From Patescibacteria group bacterium (lineage in GTDB: Bacteria; Patescibacteriota; Minisyncoccia; RBG-13-40-8-A): DNA of 64,000 nt. Shown here piece by piece: positions 18,944 through 52,329 of the stretch; position 1 is the stretch's first letter, and each line of letters opens with the position of its first letter. The translations under genes were made by a program, and so were the position numbers. The notes under the pieces were generated by a model, which ran no database searches, was not told the DNA's origin, and saw nothing but the letters and a program-made list of their open reading frames with translations. The stretch is from positions 8,464 to 72,463 of the forward strand of contig JAZDGD010000001.1 of NCBI GenBank assembly GCA_043807255.1, in the 5' to 3' direction.

Positions 18944-18957
18944 GTATTCATTAATAT

Positions 18958-18993
18958 GTACGGAGAACTGTTCTCCGTACATCTCCGTACATA
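18958..18993. repeat. REP family 1 palindrome TGTACGGAGAACTGTTCTCCGTACA (plus an extra half-site)
   Basis: Inverted repeat read directly; further copies at 19212-19236 (degenerate, inside the CDS) and 19720-19744. Confidence 0.8.
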
Positions 18994-19024
18994 TCTCATT
19001 GTAAATTTGCTATAATCAATTTAT

Positions 19025-19714
19025 ATGGCAATTAAAAGACCACAATTAATTAATAATGAAATTTACCACATCATTATTAGGGGCGTAGGTGACACGAAAA
19101 TTTTTAAAGAGCAAAACGATTATTATCGTATGATTTTTTCTCTTTACGAATTTAATAATTATAGACCAGTAGAAATTAGGACTCGACGACAAAAAAGAAA
19201 AACAGAGAAGATGTACGGAGAACTGTTCTCCGGCACATTCTCTGACGACAGGGACTTGCTGGTAGAGATTTTAGCATTTTGTTTTATGCCGAACCATGTA
19301 CATTTATTGTTGAGGCAAATTAAAAACAACGGCATTACAAAATTTATGAGGAAGCTTGGGGCTGGATATGGAGGTTATTTTAATAGAAGACACGATCGTA
19401 AAGGACATTTATTCCAAAACAGATTTCAAGCAGTTCACATAAACACAGATGATCAATTGCAAACGGTTTTTGTTTACATTCATTCTAATCCAATATCATT
19501 GGTCGAGCCAAAATGGAAAGAGGTGGGCGTAAAAAATACAAATAAAGCGATTAAATTTATAGAAAATTATAAATGGTCTAGTTATCTGGACTATATAGAT
19601 AAAAAGAATTTTCCATCCATAACTAATAGAAAATTTTTAGGAGACGTAATTGGTAAAAACGAAAAGTGTAAAAAGTTTGTTAATGATTGGATAAAGTATA
19701 AAAATGAATTATAA
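19025..19714 (+). mobile_element. REP-associated tyrosine transposase (RAYT / IS200-like TnpA), copy 1
   Basis: HxH motif (FCFMPNHVHLLL) and a catalytic Tyr region, flanked on both sides by REP family 1 palindromes. Confidence 0.75.
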
Positions 19715-19719
19715 ATAGA

Positions 19720-19744
19720 TGTACGGAGAACAGTTCTCCGTACA
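19720..19744. repeat. REP family 1 palindrome, 3' flanking copy
   Basis: TGTACGGAGAACAGTTCTCCGTACA read directly from the sequence. Confidence 0.8.
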
Positions 19745-19755
19745 CCTATATTAAT

Positions 19756-30651: not shown

Positions 30652-30777
30652 AGCTCGAATTATTTATATAAAAGACACGTGTTGATTTTTTTAATAAAAA
30701 AATCACACTCTATCTCGGTCCGATGGCGATCGGACCTGCGATGCGGACTTTTATATAAACAATTCTCGCCAAGATTT
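30652..30777 (+). promoter_or_regulatory. Conserved roughly 125-nt leader element, copy A (upstream of purN)
   Basis: Near-identical to 39270-39404 apart from a central hairpin whose two arms are both replaced while staying complementary (ggtccgatggcgatcggacc versus agccgactgctgtcggct). It also contains an AT hairpin (gtgttgatttttttaataaaaaaatcacac). Confidence 0.5.
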
Positions 30778-31383
30778 ATGAAAAATATAGCGGTACTGGT
30801 GTCTGGTAATGGGACGAATTTACAAGCGATAATTGATAATGTAAAAGACGGGAAAATAAACGGCAAAATTGTTGCTGTGATTTCGAATAAAGCCGATGCT
30901 TATGGATTAGAAAGAGCAAGGCAAGCAGGAATTCCGGAATATTTTATTGATCACAAAGGAATTACGCGAGAAGAGCATGAACAAAAAATAATTGATATTT
31001 TAGAAAAAAATAATGTTGATTTAGTTGTTTTGGCCGGATATATGCGCGTTGTAACTTCGTTGTTTGTGAATAAATATAAACACAGATTAATTAATATCCA
31101 TCCCGCACTTTTGCCTGCATTTCCTGGAACCGACGGCTATGGTGATACATTTAATTATGGTTGTAAGGTTGGCGGATGCACAGTACATTTTGTTGACGAA
31201 GGAGTTGATACTGGTCCGATAATTATTCAAAGAGTTAACGAAATCAAAGAAGACGATACGTTAGAAAGTTTTAAACAGCGTGGATTAGAAATCGAACATC
31301 AAGCACTCCCCGAGGCAGTAAAACTTTTTTGTGAGGACAGATTAAAGATCGAGGGAAGAAAAGTGAAAATCTTACGAGGCTAA
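30778..31383 (+). CDS. purN: Phosphoribosylglycinamide formyltransferase (formyl transferase family)
   Basis: NIAVLVSGNGTNLQAI, the INIHPALLPAFPG motif and a catalytic HxxD region. Confidence 0.75.
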   Translation: MKNIAVLVSGNGTNLQAIIDNVKDGKINGKIVAVISNKADAYGLERARQAGIPEYFIDHKGITREEHEQKIIDILEKNNVDLVVLAGYMRVVTSLFVNKYKHRLINIHPALLPAFPGTDGYGDTFNYGCKVGGCTVHFVDEGVDTGPIIIQRVNEIKEDDTLESFKQRGLEIEHQALPEAVKLFCEDRLKIEGRKVKILRG

Positions 31384-31395
31384 GCCTCGTAAGAT
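31369..31395. repeat. Palindrome ATCTTACGAGGCTAAGCCTCGTAAGAT overlapping the purN stop codon (TAA in the loop)
   Basis: Perfect inverted repeat; an identical copy at 31976-32002 overlaps the udg stop. Confidence 0.8.
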
Positions 31396-31408
31396 TTTAG
31401 AAAATTCT

Positions 31409-31990
31409 ATGACAAAAAAAGAACAATTAGAACAACTAAATAAAAAAATGTTAGTTTGTTCAAAATGTGTTCTGCGAAAAACGTGTCGGACGGTGGTTCC
31501 GGGGGAGGGCAATGCCGATACGGAAATTATGTTTATTGGCGAAGGGCCTGGGAAAAAAGAGGACGAACTTGGTCGTCCTTTTGTTGGTTCTGCGGGGAAA
31601 TTTTTAGATGAAATGTTTGCGGCGATAAAAACTAAAAGAGAAGATATTTATATTGCCAATGTTGTAAAGTGTCGTCCGCCGGCAAATCGTGATCCATTAC
31701 CAAAAGAAGCGATTGCTTGTTGGCCATGGTTAGAACAACAAGTTAAAATCATCAATCCTAAATTAATTGTTTTATTAGGCAGACATTCAATGGAAAAATT
31801 TTTGCCGGGACAAAAAATTTCTCAAATTCATGGAAAAGCGTTGCGTAAAGACATGCCCGGTTTTGGACCAATGGTTTTTTATGTTCTCTATCATCCCGCT
31901 GCCGCACTCTATAATGGCAGTATGCGTGGAACATTAATCGAAGATTTCAAGAAGATTCCAAAAGTTTTAAGGGCAATCTTACGAGGCTAA
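31409..31990 (+). CDS. Uracil-DNA glycosylase, family 4
   Basis: GEGPG...GRPFVGSAGKFLD and Cys cluster (CSKCVLRKTC) typical of family 4 UDG. Confidence 0.8.
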   Translation: MTKKEQLEQLNKKMLVCSKCVLRKTCRTVVPGEGNADTEIMFIGEGPGKKEDELGRPFVGSAGKFLDEMFAAIKTKREDIYIANVVKCRPPANRDPLPKEAIACWPWLEQQVKIINPKLIVLLGRHSMEKFLPGQKISQIHGKALRKDMPGFGPMVFYVLYHPAAALYNGSMRGTLIEDFKKIPKVLRAILRG

Positions 31991-32028
31991 GCCTCGTAAG
32001 ATATTCGGTCCTTCAAGGACCGAATATT
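31976..32028. repeat. Palindrome family 3 copy fused to a REP family 2 copy (AATATTCGGTCCTTCAAGGACCGAATATT)
   Basis: Both palindromes read directly from the sequence, overlapping the udg stop codon and extending just beyond it. Confidence 0.8.
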
Positions 32029-48309: not shown

Positions 48310-49071
48310 ATGAAGATTGGGGGTTTGCAAAAATTAACTCTCGTTGATTATCCAAACAAAATTGCAGCAACAGTATTTTTAACTGGCTGCAATTTTAAAT
48401 GTGGCTTTTGTCATAATCCTAGTCTTGTAGACGTAAAACGGAGGACAGACCTCCGTAATTACGGAGGTCTGTCCTCCGTAGAATTCTTTGATTTTTTAAA
48501 ATCAAAACAAGGATTGATTGATGGAATTTGTGTTACTGGCGGAGAACCAACCATAAATTCTAATTTAGTTGAATTCATCAAAAGAATAAAAGAATTAAAT
48601 TTTTCAATTAAACTAGATACCAACGGGAGCAACCCTGAAATGTTACAGGAGTTAATCAAACAAAAATTATTAGACTTTATTGCCATGGACATCAAGACAT
48701 CTGTGGATGTTAAAAATCCAAAATCCCATGCCTACCGGCAGGCAGGCAAAATCCAAAATTCAAAATACGACAAAGCGACGGGAACGAACGTAAATATCGA
48801 AAACATAATGAAAAGTGTAGAAATAATAAAAAATTCTAAAATAGATTATGAATTTAGAACAACGGTTGTGCCAGGCATAGTTAATAGGGAAGATATTGAA
48901 AGAATTGGTAAATGGTTAAAGGGCGTAAAAAAATTCTCCTTACAGCAATTTAGAAATCAAAAGGTTTTAAACAAAGAATTTGAAAAAGTTATACCATACC
49001 GGGACGATACATTAAAAGAGTTTAAAAAAATATTAGAAAAATATATTAAAAACGTGGAACTAAGAATTTGA
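48310..49071 (+). CDS. nrdG: Anaerobic RNR activating protein (radical SAM)
   Basis: CNFKCGFCHN radical-SAM cluster motif. It contains an in-frame perfect 41-nt palindrome. Confidence 0.85.
   Translation: MKIGGLQKLTLVDYPNKIAATVFLTGCNFKCGFCHNPSLVDVKRRTDLRNYGGLSSVEFFDFLKSKQGLIDGICVTGGEPTINSNLVEFIKRIKELNFSIKLDTNGSNPEMLQELIKQKLLDFIAMDIKTSVDVKNPKSHAYRQAGKIQNSKYDKATGTNVNIENIMKSVEIIKNSKIDYEFRTTVVPGIVNREDIERIGKWLKGVKKFSLQQFRNQKVLNKEFEKVIPYRDDTLKEFKKILEKYIKNVELRI
48439..48479. repeat. Perfect palindrome cggaggacagacctccgtaattacggaggtctgtcctccg inside the nrdG CDS
   Basis: Read directly from the sequence. It encodes RRTDLRNYGGLSS in frame. Confidence 0.85.
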
Positions 49072-49330: not shown

Positions 49331-50740
49331 ATGAAGATATCAAACATTTTTTTGATTATCTGCCTGATATTTATTATTGTTGTATTTTTTGTGTCTCCGG
49401 AAATGTTAGAAAAAAATATCCCTCAATTCCTGCCGGACGAGGGAATGCTTGCCCCGCAAAATGCGGGGTTTGTTGGGAAAATTATTAAAGAGCCGACTAT
49501 CAAAAGTAACAGTATTCAGTTAACAGTTAAAACCGAATTTGGGAAAATTTTAATTACCATCCCGAATTATCCGGAATATTTTTATGGAGACATCTTAAAA
49601 ATTAATGGCAAAATACAATTCCCGGTTATTTTTGTCCTAAAGTCGCCAGAGGCGACTCGGACCCCGACCGCCGAAGGCGGTCTAGGGGACGAATTTAATT
49701 ACAAAAACTACTTAGCCAAAGATAAAATTTATTATGTTAGTTATTATCCGAAAATAGAAATTTTAGACAGAGGTCAGGGCAATAAGATTTTTTCTGGAAT
49801 TTTAAAATTTAAAAATAATCTTACGAAAAAAGTAGAAACTTTAATGCCGTTTCCAGAAGTTTCAATTTTGGAGGGAATTATTTTGGGTAATAAACAAATA
49901 TTTTCAGAACAAATTAAAAACAATTTAAGTATCACCGGCACAAGTCACATTACGGCAATTTCAGGAATGAACATCGTAATTATTTCTGAAATTTTAATGA
50001 TTGTTTTGATTGGATTGGGATTGTGGCGGAAACAAGCGTTTTATTTTGTTTTAGTTTTAATTTTTCTTTTTATTCTAATGGTTGGTGCGCCCGCTTCAGC
50101 TGTACGTGCGGGGATTATGGGTATGATTTTTCTTTATGCAAAAAAAGTTGGCCGCTTGAGCGGTGCAATGCGAATTATGATTTTTGCGGGCGCAATCATG
50201 CTCGCGTTTAATCCGTTGTTATTAAGATACGACGTTGGGTTTCAATTGTCTTTTATCGCTGTAATTGGCTTGATTTACATCAAGCCAATTTTTGATGGGT
50301 GGTGGGGGAAATTATTGAAAAGAGAATATATTGGTTCTATTTTAGAGATTATTGATACGACGATTGCTGCACAAATATCGGTTTTGGGTATTTTGGTTTA
50401 TAATTTTGGAAAAATTTCTTTTATTTCGCCAATTACCAATATTTTAATTGTGCCATTTATAACCCTGCTTACAATTATTGGGATGATTTTTGTTGGGGGA
50501 GTGATGGTGTCTGGTTTTTTGGGAAAAATTTTACTTTGGCCGGCATATCTAGGTTCGGCCTATGTTCTACGAATAATTGATTGGTTTGCCAAAATTTCAT
50601 GGGCATCAAAAGAAATTTCAGGCGTGCATTGGCTTTGGGTTGTTGGATATTATGTTGTATTGGTTGGATTAATTGTTTTATATAATTATTATCAAAAGAA
50701 GAAATATTCGGTCCTTGAAGGACCGAATATTATGGGTTAA
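49331..50740 (+). CDS. comEC: ComEC/Rec2 competence-channel domain protein
   Basis: Competence domain motif (ITGTSHITAISGMNIVII) in a multi-TM protein. The C-terminus (YSVLEGPNI) is encoded by a REP family 2 copy. Confidence 0.75.
   Translation: MKISNIFLIICLIFIIVVFFVSPEMLEKNIPQFLPDEGMLAPQNAGFVGKIIKEPTIKSNSIQLTVKTEFGKILITIPNYPEYFYGDILKINGKIQFPVIFVLKSPEATRTPTAEGGLGDEFNYKNYLAKDKIYYVSYYPKIEILDRGQGNKIFSGILKFKNNLTKKVETLMPFPEVSILEGIILGNKQIFSEQIKNNLSITGTSHITAISGMNIVIISEILMIVLIGLGLWRKQAFYFVLVLIFLFILMVGAPASAVRAGIMGMIFLYAKKVGRLSGAMRIMIFAGAIMLAFNPLLLRYDVGFQLSFIAVIGLIYIKPIFDGWWGKLLKREYIGSILEIIDTTIAAQISVLGILVYNFGKISFISPITNILIVPFITLLTIIGMIFVGGVMVSGFLGKILLWPAYLGSAYVLRIIDWFAKISWASKEISGVHWLWVVGYYVVLVGLIVLYNYYQKKKYSVLEGPNIMG
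50703..50731. repeat. REP family 2 palindrome (AATATTCGGTCCTTGAAGGACCGAATATT)
   Basis: Read directly; other copies at 50896-50923 (inside the RAYT CDS), 51401-51429 and 32001-32028. Confidence 0.85.
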
Positions 50741-50750
50741 AATAAAATAT

Positions 50751-51401
50751 ATGGCAGAAATTTATCATATTTTAAATAGGTCAATAGATAAAAAGAAAAT
50801 ATTTTTAAATGACAAAGATTATTTTAGATTTGTCCACGATTTATTTGAATTTAACGACGAAAGCCTAGCAAGTAAATATTCGGTCCTTGAAGGACCGAAT
50901 ATTAGAAAGCCAAGAAAATTGCTGGTAAATATTCATGCGTTTTGTCTGATGCCGAATCATTATCACTTATTGATAAGTGAAATAAGAGAAGGTGGGATTT
51001 CAAAATTTATGCAAAAACTTGGCGCTGGCTATGTTAGATATTTTAACGCCAGATACAAGCGCAAAGGAACCATCTTCGAGAGTCGTTATAAATCAATTTT
51101 AATCAGTAACTCTAATCATTTTCTCAATCTTCCGTATTATATTCATCTAAATCCGCTAGATCTTAAGTTCCCAGAATGGAGGGAGAGAAAAATAAAAGAT
51201 TACAACAAGGCAACAGAATATTTAGACAAGTATAGATGGTCTAGCCATATGGACTATTCAAATATTAAGAATTTTCCGTCAGTTACAGACCGAAAATTAT
51301 TATTAGATATATTTGGCGGAGAAGAGAAGTATAAACAAAGCATAAATAGATGGTTAAAAGAAATGGAAATAGGCGACATGGGGGAATTGATATTAGAATA
51401 A
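50751..51401 (+). mobile_element. REP-associated tyrosine transposase (RAYT / IS200-like TnpA), copy 2
   Basis: HxH motif (FCLMPNHYHLLI) and a Tyr region (YKRKGTIFESRY). It is about 50% identical to copy 1 and flanked by REP family 2 palindromes. Confidence 0.75.
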
Positions 51402-51429
51402 ATATTCGGTCCTCGAAGGACCGAATATT
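51401..51429. repeat. REP family 2 palindrome (AATATTCGGTCCTCGAAGGACCGAATATT)
   Basis: Read directly; it overlaps the RAYT stop codon. Confidence 0.85.
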
Positions 51430-51435
51430 TATTTA

Positions 51436-52329
51436 TTGTTGAATAAAAAAAGCCCGTGGCGAAACAAATTTATCACAATGATTAGAAAATATCAAGGGAA
51501 AATTTTATTAAGCCTATTGACGATTACGATAATCGTTTGGATTTTTGTATTTCAAGAGTCAATTCCGAATAAGTTTTTGGAGATTGATTTTTTGGATGTC
51601 GGACAGGGCGATGCAATTTTTATTGAAACATTAAACAAAAAACAAATGTTAATCGACGGCGGACCGAATTTAAGCGTTTTAGAAAAATTGGGCGAAGTTA
51701 TGCCGTTTTATGATCGATATATTGATGTTGTTTTGTTAACCCACCCCGAACAGGATCATATGAATGGTTTAATTGAGGTTCTAAAGAGATATAATGTTGG
51801 AGTTATTGTATTTAATGGGATTATCAGAGACACGGCACAATATCATGAATTTGTAAATTTAATTGGAAACAAAAAAACTCCAATCTATATTGCACAAGCC
51901 GGTGAAAAGATTGATTTTGGCAACGGTATCAATTTAGATATTTTGTATCCATTTGAAAGCATGGAAAACAAAAAATTGTCTGATTCGAATAATTATTCGG
52001 TTGTTGGGAAATTAATCTACAAGAATTTTAGCGTACTATTTACGGGCGATATAGAAAAGAGCACTGAAAATAAATTAATTAAAGCAAAAGTTGATTTAAG
52101 TGCTGATATTATAAAAATTGCACATCATGGTAGTAAAACCTCGACCAGTGACGCATTTTTGAACGCAGTAAATGCAATAATGGCGATAATTGAGGTCGGA
52201 AAAGATAATTCTTATGGCCATCCGCACCCAGACGTTATGAGCCGACTGAAGAATTTAATTGTTTTACAAACTAGCAACGAAGGCACTATACAAATTCTAA
52301 CCGACGGAGAAAAGATTATTAAAAAATAA
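51436..52329 (+). CDS. Metallo-beta-lactamase fold protein (ComEC C-terminal-domain-like), separate ORF
   Basis: N-terminal TM, then MBL motifs (DVGQGDAIFIE, THPEQDHMNGL, AHHGSKTS). Confidence 0.7.
   Translation: MLNKKSPWRNKFITMIRKYQGKILLSLLTITIIVWIFVFQESIPNKFLEIDFLDVGQGDAIFIETLNKKQMLIDGGPNLSVLEKLGEVMPFYDRYIDVVLLTHPEQDHMNGLIEVLKRYNVGVIVFNGIIRDTAQYHEFVNLIGNKKTPIYIAQAGEKIDFGNGINLDILYPFESMENKKLSDSNNYSVVGKLIYKNFSVLFTGDIEKSTENKLIKAKVDLSADIIKIAHHGSKTSTSDAFLNAVNAIMAIIEVGKDNSYGHPHPDVMSRLKNLIVLQTSNEGTIQILTDGEKIIKK

Follow-up and report, generated by a model that had tools for sequence, protein, structure and literature searches.

In a 64,000-nucleotide stretch of a Patescibacteria group bacterium genome (assembly GCA_043807255.1, contig JAZDGD010000001.1; hereafter the window), a gene for a REP-associated tyrosine transposase (RAYT), accompanied by repetitive extragenic palindromic (REP) hairpins, stands between the gene for the channel part of the competence protein ComEC and a separate gene for its metallo-beta-lactamase (MBL) part. 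The question raised by this locus is whether the REP/RAYT insertion split comEC into two genes or settled where two genes already stood, and a sequence-only reading of the window had left both options standing. The comparison with related loci pointed to the second option. The whole account that we favour, namely an ancestrally split ComEC, an ancestral REP-RAYT-REP insertion, mainly vertical inheritance and a conserved internal REP, is in our judgement very probably correct. Related loci are cited below by L numbers and proteins by P numbers. The features of the junction, in window coordinates, are as follows.

49331-50740, plus strand: comEC channel gene, 469 aa, with DUF4131/OB fold and the Competence transmembrane domain (Pfam)
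50703-50731, unstranded: upstream copy of the palindrome REP2, with a 14-bp stem, a 1-nt loop and a central G; encodes the comEC end
50751-51401, plus strand: RAYT-like Y1/HUH transposase gene (RAYT1), 216 aa; Pfam Y1_Tnp, E 3.2e-9
50875-50903, unstranded: internal REP2 copy, identical to the upstream copy, in frame at codons 42-51 (KYSVLEGPNI)
51401-51429 (core; full palindrome 51397-51433, 17-bp stem), unstranded: downstream REP2 copy, which includes the RAYT stop
51442-51485, plus strand: orphaned 3' end of the pre-insertion comEC, recognised by similarity to the comEC end of L007
51478-52329, plus strand: separate ComEC-type metallo-beta-lactamase gene, 283 aa (Pfam Lactamase_B)

The two flanking genes were assigned by domain and profile searches. 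The open reading frame (ORF) at 49331-50740 matched the Pfam domain Competence (E 5.7e-49) as well as DUF4131, and its product corresponded to positions 114-371 of the NCBIfam model TIGR00361 (ComEC_Rec2). The MBL product corresponded to positions 424-660 of the 663 in the same model, i.e. to its C-terminal third, so that the OB-fold and Competence parts are found in one product and the ComEC-type MBL part in the other. The MBL protein has an N-terminal hydrophobic helix (by eye) and an HPEQDH metal motif, and was 78-86% identical over its full length to the 283-aa genes of relatives. Its reading frame ends at 52329; the TTG at 51436, used as the start in the sequence-only reading, is merely the longest possible start. 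In all relatives, translation starts at the equivalent of the ATG at 51478 (MIRKYQG...), which is probably the true start. The separate gene and its end were therefore placed correctly at the outset, and its beginning has to be moved.

The window ComEC aligned over its full length with homologs of 426-451 aa, all of them without an MBL domain. That domain was found in none of the 120 ComEC homologs (49-83% identity) among the matches listed, all of which consisted of DUF4131 and Competence only; the full-length proteins among these were about 410-465 aa, and the named ones belonged to Candidatus Portnoybacteria or Patescibacteria. The check proposed in the sequence-only reading, whether comEC is fused or split in related genomes, thus gave a clear answer: it is split. 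At the RAYT-free loci L004, L005/L006 and L007 (76-81% ComEC identity), the gene order was ftsA-ftsZ-nrdD-nrdG-small ORF-comEC-MBL, and comEC shared 4 or 8 bp with the 283-aa MBL gene. Over the RAYT-free relatives L004, L005/6, L007/L019, L013 and L039, comEC (426-450 aa) and MBL (283 aa) were separate genes with the same boundary, formed by an overlap of 4-8 bp or a gap of a few bases, and separate genes with this boundary and no RAYT were also present at L015 and L016-18. A further 77 loci were retrieved via the MBL protein and scored as split or fused where both genes were present; at an MBL identity of at least 62%, comEC and MBL were separate at every retrieved locus holding both genes. 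A profile scan of the genome contigs with ComEC gave three loci, none of them close enough to inform. On the basis of these sequence comparisons, comEC of the window is an ancestrally separate gene and not a truncated fusion, and the split is older than the RAYT insertion. Because RAYT-free relatives carry separate genes with the same boundary, the very observation that the sequence-only reading had named as decisive, its first option, a comEC split by the REP/RAYT insertion, is refuted. Its second option, an element settled into a naturally split gene, holds and can be refined to an entry close to the old comEC stop. Since the MBL genes of the relatives overlap comEC by 4-8 bp, translational coupling of the two genes is suggested.

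A ComEC composed of DUF4131 and Competence only, as encoded by the window comEC, is a known architecture (Pimentel & Zhang 2018, PMC6299819; Silale 2021, PMC8579336). This 'DC' profile is common, and gains and losses of Lactamase_B have been documented in the former survey, which scored domains protein by protein and in which the words 'split' and 'separate' do not occur. In contrast to the 'DC' proteins, the MBL part here has not been lost: it is encoded by the adjacent gene, which overlaps comEC in relatives and has its own membrane anchor.

The place of entry was deduced from what remains on the far side of the RAYT gene. There, the old comEC frame reads KKPVAKQIYHND between two stop codons, and ComEC of the RAYT-free L007 ends with KKPVAEPIYHND ahead of its stop; positions 51442-51481 matched the 3' end of L007 comEC at 34 of 40 nt and 10 of 12 aa. 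The old comEC stop is the TAG at 51483-51485, which gives an 8-bp overlap with the MBL gene from its ATG onwards; L004 and L007 show the same overlap. As the orphan tail matches the L007 comEC end, the REP-RAYT-REP unit is placed by sequence 12 codons ahead of the old comEC stop, within a tail whose sequence is free to differ from one relative to another. The old tail was replaced by REP-encoded residues, the new stop lies two codons past the upstream REP, and the old overlap was broken. The gap between comEC and the MBL gene in the window is now 737 bp. Neither gene is shortened, identity to their counterparts in relatives is 70-86%, and both comEC parts look intact.

The last comEC codons read K-YSVLEGPNI-MG and a stop, of which (K)YSVLEGPNI is encoded by the upstream REP2 copy. 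The earlier recognition that the final residues YSVLEGPNI derive from a REP2 palindrome was borne out, with the palindrome at 50703-50731. Homologous REP-encoded tails were found in the ComEC proteins P0003, P0011 and P0015. We considered whether the REP tail of comEC was a recent event and rejected it, since lineages at 70-84% identity share that tail. A candidate target-site duplication (AATAAAAAG on either side of the solitary REP of L012) was also dropped, being indistinguishable from runs of lysine codons.

REP2 (AATATTCGGTCCTTGAAGGACCGAATATT) is a palindrome of 29 nt, which occurs at 50703-50731, 50875-50903, 51401-51429 (one mismatch) and 32000-32028. Four sites (eight strand matches) of the REP2 pattern were counted in the 64 kb, compared with 0.00 expected from 100 shuffles, so that a chance occurrence can be ruled out. 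As single-stranded DNA, the copies were predicted to form hairpins of 13-17 bp with energies of -12.7 to -16.2 kcal/mol (z about -8.5). The copy over the RAYT stop, already noticed in the sequence-only reading, shares a single base of its core with the TAA, and its loop is CGA, compared with a single central base in the others. A copy inside the RAYT coding sequence had likewise been seen; it exists, although at 50875-50903 and not at 50896-50923. In the RAYT1 model, this internal copy encodes the loop from helix 1 to the strand leading into the HUH motif. The earlier statement that protein is encoded by the REPs holds for the comEC tail and the RAYT loop, whereas the third copy contributes one base of a stop codon only.

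The RAYT gene at 50751-51401 had been identified correctly from the sequence alone, as the Y1_Tnp match showed. The catalytic residues of RAYT1 are intact, with H70 and H72 forming the HUH motif and Y129 and Y130 as the tyrosines of YYIHLNP; H70, H72, Y130 and N134 were invariant and Y129 nearly so among 90 homologs. The AlphaFold (AF2) model of RAYT1 (pLDDT 87.9, pTM 0.85) had its best fold match in the Protein Data Bank with 4ER8, E. coli TnpA_REP in complex with a REP hairpin (E 2.6e-6, TM 0.67 target-normalised), followed by the IS608 and ISDra2 transposases. RAYT1 thus has the Y1 HUH fold, the HUH motif and a single catalytic tyrosine in a Y-x-x-x-N-P helix. Two cognate inverted REPs flanking the gene are a further mark of a RAYT (Nunvar 2010, PMC2817692), and the flanking REPs here are inverted, as judged by one asymmetric base. 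The central bases of the upstream and downstream copies were G/C in L008, L091, L095 and L097, A/T in L093 and T/A in RAYT2, a second RAYT gene of the window; L090, with C/C, is an exception. Two observations weigh against full membership. The model NF047646 (REP_Tyr_transpos), the sole NCBIfam match for RAYT1 and RAYT2, gave 40 and 47 bits, respectively, below its curated cut-off of 80. The GTAG or CGTC tag was absent from REP2 and its variants, and family A, the REP of RAYT2, has GTAC only. REP copies away from a RAYT numbered one for REP2 and none for family A in the 64 kb. One extra REP copy was present in 20 kb at L095. Because the REPs lack the tag and are few, we use the term RAYT-like: the enzyme would work like a RAYT, and two formal marks of the class are missing. 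Scanning viral contigs with the RAYT alignment gave no match.

The closest known system is the REPtron of E. coli (Ton-Hoang 2012, PMC3333891; Messing 2012, 4ER8; Corneloup 2021, PMC8266576), in which a Y1/HUH gene at a fixed site is bracketed by cognate hairpins, as here, and whose TnpA_REP supplied the best fold match of RAYT1. Both systems look like old acquisitions with later loss in some lineages and repeats remaining, as reported for E. coli (PMC3333891). They differ in that RAYT1 is about 14% identical to TnpA_REP and carries some 70 additional, conserved residues at its C-terminus, and in that the REPs here are near-perfect palindromes with a 14-bp stem, without the GTAG tag or a stem mismatch and at very low copy number. 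A third REP lies in frame inside the gene here, and the REPtron papers searched make no mention of such a copy. In the RAYT/REPIN systems of Pseudomonas and enterobacteria (Nunvar 2010, PMC2817692; Bertels & Rainey 2011, PMC3116915), each RAYT paralog has its own REP family and the pattern of inheritance looks vertical, as in the present case. In contrast to these, neither paired REPs (REPINs) nor copies dispersed by the hundred were in evidence here, the organism is a Patescibacterium of ultra-small size, and the RAYT carries an internal in-frame REP. The elements of the IS200/IS605 family (IS608, ISDra2) have the same catalytic fold and hairpins at both ends of the transposase gene, and the ancestral mechanism was probably their 'peel and paste' chemistry on single strands. 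However, the two end hairpins have the same sequence here and distinct ones in IS200/IS605. No tnpB was found beside RAYT1 or RAYT2 in the window, and there was no sign of multiple identical whole elements: the two RAYTs of the window are paralogs of 43% identity, each with its own REP. Across lineages, the junction RAYT keeps its syntenic position.

The order comEC-REP-RAYT-REP-MBL recurred in independent assemblies, at L011 (RAYT 83% identical), L090 (84%), L091 (70%), L008-L010/L014 (77%) and partially at L024. The junction RAYT of L091 is accompanied by a different REP, AATTAATGACGTTSAACGTCATTAATT. In the RAYT of L008-L010/L014 (L008 6368-7054), a TAA follows in frame directly after a decayed internal REP, and the same was seen on many contigs; the gene is either a fixed pseudogene or contains a recoding site. 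The left arm of the decayed REP resembles REP family B, described below, and the right arm REP2. At L012/L020, comEC ends in a single REP without a RAYT, and past this REP comes an orphan tail that corresponds to the genuine tail of P0001, a homolog without a REP and the closest RAYT-free ComEC, known as a protein only. Judging by this match, L012/L020 is a solo-REP scar. The junction RAYTs formed one cluster in a neighbour-joining tree, and divergence was similar for the three genes (70-84% identity for junction RAYTs, 70-77% for ComEC and 78-80% for MBL). Clustering and parallel divergence fit one old insertion with later losses, and inheritance appears to have been mainly vertical.

The explanation that competes best with this history is that the RAYT reached the junction by repeated arrival, or by homologous recombination of the comEC-MBL region between lineages, which we consider rather unlikely. 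It draws support from L011, in which the 3' third of the RAYT with the downstream REP (L011 1935-2222) was 95-98% identical to L091, compared with about 72% elsewhere in the locus. L011 has REP2 upstream of and inside the gene and the L091-type REP downstream, and the L011 and L091 contigs come from the same metagenome. By these sequences, L011 is a recombinant with L091 within the RAYT, and recombination between lineages at the junction is real. The orphan tail of the window is, moreover, still as similar to L007 as coding sequence, and the hosts encode DNA-uptake machinery. In the neighbour-joining tree of ComEC, RAYT-free lineages (P0001, P0005, P0006 and P0008) were nested among the RAYT-bearing ones, together with the window ComEC. 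This nesting speaks against a single insertion, as does the fact that a history of one insertion plus losses is read from neighbour-joining trees without support values. On the other side, the junction RAYTs form a single clade whose divergence is close to that of ComEC and MBL, and the solo REP (L012) and the pseudogene (L008) are what decay would be expected to leave behind where inheritance was vertical; in E. coli, tnpA_REP is documented to have been lost while its flanking repeats were kept (PMC3333891). In relatives, one or two short ORFs on the minus strand (51-78 aa, hydrophobic by eye) occupy the interval from the RAYT or the solo REP to the MBL gene, at L011 2230-2440, L090 2620-2830, L091 6750-7095 and L012 3710-4195. 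They are absent from the window. The comEC-MBL junction seems to collect insertions.

In the course of events that we propose, this Portnoybacteria-like Patescibacterium would build ComEC from two genes, one for the OB-fold/channel part and one for a membrane-anchored MBL nuclease part. The REP-RAYT-REP unit, a single Y1/HUH gene bracketed by inverted copies of a 29-nt hairpin, would have entered comEC 12 codons ahead of the stop in the ancestor of one subclade. It would afterwards have been lost in some lineages (leaving one solo REP), decayed in one and been exchanged by homologous recombination in another.

The internal REP is not peculiar to RAYT1, since the window holds a second unit of the same three-copy layout built around a different REP.

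18956-19745, plus strand: second REP-RAYT-REP unit, with REP family A
19025-19714, plus strand: RAYT2, 229 aa, 43% identical to RAYT1
18956-18982 (upstream) and 19719-19745 (downstream): copies of REP family A, ATGTACGGAGAACTGTTCTCCGTACAT, flanking RAYT2

A near-identical family A copy lies in frame inside RAYT2 (19210-19237, KMYGELFSGT). The upstream family A copy is followed by a partial extra repeat, CTCCGTACAT. A gene's own flanking REP was found in frame inside seven of the nine RAYT genes with DNA (RAYT1, RAYT2, L011, L090, L093, L095 and L097), and these internal copies represented five different REP sequences. The orthologs of L011 and L090 carry the internal REP at the same codons as RAYT1, and L093, L095 and L097, in unrelated genomic contexts, each have three copies of their own different REP, one ahead of the gene, one in frame within it and one at the stop codon. 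The internal REP ends 17-19 residues ahead of the first HUH histidine in eight of eight genes, including RAYT2 and the decayed L008, and begins at codon position 2 in all six genes with an intact 29-nt copy; the phase in RAYT2 differs by one. The encoded peptides share little (KYSVLEGPNI, QYNDLEGRYI, KYLDIQCPNI, ESYEVKPRKI and KMYGELFSGT). The pLDDT of the RAYT1 model fell below 50 in two segments only, residues 42-50 and the last four residues, and the REP-encoded loop is accordingly predicted to be disordered. At the DNA level, 24 REP copies from nine loci aligned without gaps, with compensatory changes at 10 of the 14 stem pairs. Paired cells made up 96.8% of this alignment and 71.5% after shuffling, and none of 500 shuffles reached the observed value. 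The three REP copies agreed within each locus. The compensatory stem changes, together with this agreement, indicate at the sequence level that the constraint acts on the nucleic acid and that the REP copies evolve in concert.

In-frame REPs in ordinary genes, including gene ends, are known (Di Nocera 2013, PMC3733652). Like these intragenic REPs and the palindromic elements of Rickettsia, the REPs described here are in-frame palindromes, often at gene ends, that encode tolerated peptides. They differ in that one of the host genes is the repeat's own transposase, the position is conserved and the internal copy co-evolves with the flanking ones. In a limited search by terms, Nunvar 2010, Ton-Hoang 2012, Quentin 2018 and Corneloup 2021 made no mention of a REP inside a RAYT gene. 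A conserved in-frame cognate REP inside a RAYT family is, as far as this search goes, new, while in-frame REPs that code for protein are as such known.

As to its role, the internal REP might be a functional cis element kept since before the paralogs diverged, serving self-limiting expression or as a protected 'master copy' through which enzyme specificity and repeat sequence would evolve jointly; we advance this tentatively, as one possibility. The enzyme would then recognise its own substrate inside its gene or mRNA as well as over its promoter. Several points weigh against the internal REP as a general trait of the family. L093, L095 and L097 were picked for loop peptides compatible with a palindrome, by which the frequency of the trait is overestimated, and of the loci not picked in this way L091 has no internal REP and L008 a decayed one. 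In a peptide-level test, about 24% of 112 homologs (27/112) fitted a perfect stem of at least 13 bp in the loop, and the rest of the protein gave stems of at least 13 nt in 33/112, so that the enrichment is only rough; the test is noisy because codon degeneracy makes background stems of 11-12 nt common. The competing explanation, which we regard as unlikely, is that the internal REPs are functionless, independent neutral insertions into the only tolerant loop, favoured because the enzyme acts near its own gene. It agrees with the predicted disorder of the encoded peptide, with the intact appearance of L091 without an internal copy and with the intragenic REPs of other bacteria (PMC3733652). 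In-frame REPs or hairpins are also present in comEC, in nrdG and at the ends of ORFs 30679-31383 and 31409-31990. Independent insertions would, however, be expected to scatter, whereas the position is fixed at 17-19 residues ahead of HUH, with one codon phase in the six genes with 29-nt REPs. This constancy spans five REP sequences and a 43%-identical paralog, and when the flanking copies undergo compensatory changes, the internal one follows them.

A mode of action can be outlined for the RAYT and its repeats. By analogy with E. coli TnpA_REP, the RAYT would bind and cleave the REP hairpin as single-stranded DNA. The similarity of the three neighbouring copies may be maintained by strand exchange or gene conversion carried out by the RAYT, by selection for cis-regulation, or by both. 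A promoter-like sequence, TTGAAG-17-TAAAAT (50715-50743), begins at the upstream REP centre and ends 7 nt ahead of the RAYT ATG. The upstream REP ends 18-21 nt ahead of the ATG in six of nine RAYT genes, and the same spacing to TAGAAT or TATAAT was seen by eye in L011, L008, L091 and L095. To judge from this arrangement, TTGAAG in the upstream REP centre could be the -35 element of the RAYT promoter. RAYT binding at the upstream REP, over the promoter-like site, would then repress the RAYT gene, and the hairpin inside the gene could take effect at the level of its DNA or its mRNA. Less favourable to this proposal, the sigma-70-like site matches at 9 of 12 positions, and 21 such sites were counted in the region against 15.5 expected. 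In a weak promoter and terminator scan, no plus-strand terminator was detected at the downstream REP and no promoter ahead of the MBL gene.

Two further explanations hardly survive. That the RAYT/REP insertion itself split a formerly fused three-domain comEC is scarcely credible: the element does occupy the domain boundary, and fused DUF4131-Competence-MBL ORFs (750-995 aa) exist in more distant relatives, only at MBL identities of 43% or less among the retrieved loci, yet in RAYT-free relatives with 76-81% ComEC identity two genes, with an overlap of 4-8 bp, are already present, the listed homologs include no fusion, and the old comEC stop, which overlaps the MBL start in the orphan tail past the RAYT, must for that reason predate the insertion. 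One fused ComEC of 813 aa was colinear with both genes, its residues 95-513 aligning with the channel ORF and 552-810 with the MBL ORF, and the gene break falls in the linker ahead of its last hydrophobic helix. The arrangement is also very unlikely to be an assembly artefact, i.e. a repeat-induced chimeric join at REP copies: the source is a metagenome-assembled genome with three near-identical 29-nt repeats within 730 bp, and a 100%-identical RAYT protein on record comes from an NCBI Patescibacteria metagenome-assembled genome, but the junction order recurs in several related lineages that were sampled and assembled independently, 29-nt repeats are below typical read or k-mer length, and the flanks are syntenic with relatives on both sides.

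Other hairpins and insertions were noted in the window. The only REP2 copy away from the RAYT stands apart from the junction.

32000-32028, unstranded: distant REP2 copy, abutting REP family B at the 3' end of ORF 31409-31990

REP family B (AATCTTACGAGGCTAAGCCTCGTAAGATT; 31366-31398 and 31976-32002) provides the last codons, (K/A)ILRG, and a TAA stop located in the hairpin loop, and does so for two genes in a row: ORF 30679-31383, which by eye is PurN-like, and ORF 31409-31990, which by eye resembles a uracil-DNA glycosylase. Since it closely resembles the REP of the L093 RAYT, a third RAYT may lie outside the window. The nrdG-like radical SAM gene at 48310-49071 contains a perfect 42-nt palindrome (48438-48479) with nested hairpins, in frame and encoding part of KRRTDLRNYGGLSSV, where relatives have a shorter, unrelated sequence. 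The same gene has an 18-residue in-frame insertion, VKNPKSHAYRQAGKIQNS, at 48706-48759, which is absent from five relatives and bounded by 12-nt direct repeats (AAAATCCAAAAT, 48713-48724 and 48748-48759); it looks like a small insertion with target duplication. The N-terminal part of comEC carries two further in-frame hairpin-bearing insertions, at 49452-49468 and 49634-49690. The LAPQNAG insertion (CCCCGCAAAATGCGGGG) is common to some relatives. The insertion VLKSPEATRTPTAEGGLGD contains two GC-rich hairpins, and as P0005 has a different insertion at the same site, this may be a hot spot for insertions. Many ComEC homologs end in KKAR(S/G)xFTGA-like residues, as if from an A-run followed by a GCCCG...CGGGC hairpin, and these tails look like another repeat or a terminator read as protein. 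Locus L001 (JBAYVI010000170.1), labelled Melioribacteraceae, contains a comEC fragment that is 79% identical over residues 22-316 only (protein P0115, 527 aa); probably, this contig was assigned to the wrong bin and its comEC is disrupted or rearranged.

For competence genes, these results mean that annotation pipelines would score such genomes as having a ComEC without a nuclease domain, though the next gene encodes the nuclease, so that what surveys of competence genes record as 'domain loss' may in many cases reflect fission of the gene. The presence of the RAYT unit indicates that the coupling of comEC and MBL can be broken by 0.7 kb without decay of either gene. If the internal REP copy is neutral, it would be one more example of the already known in-frame palindrome insertions. 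If it is functional, it would add a new layer to how domesticated hairpin transposases and their repeats persist. Patescibacteria are ultra-small and have some of the smallest bacterial genomes known. In such a host, three 29-nt hairpins and a protein of 216 aa make up a compact system for testing how an enzyme and its repeats stay matched over time.

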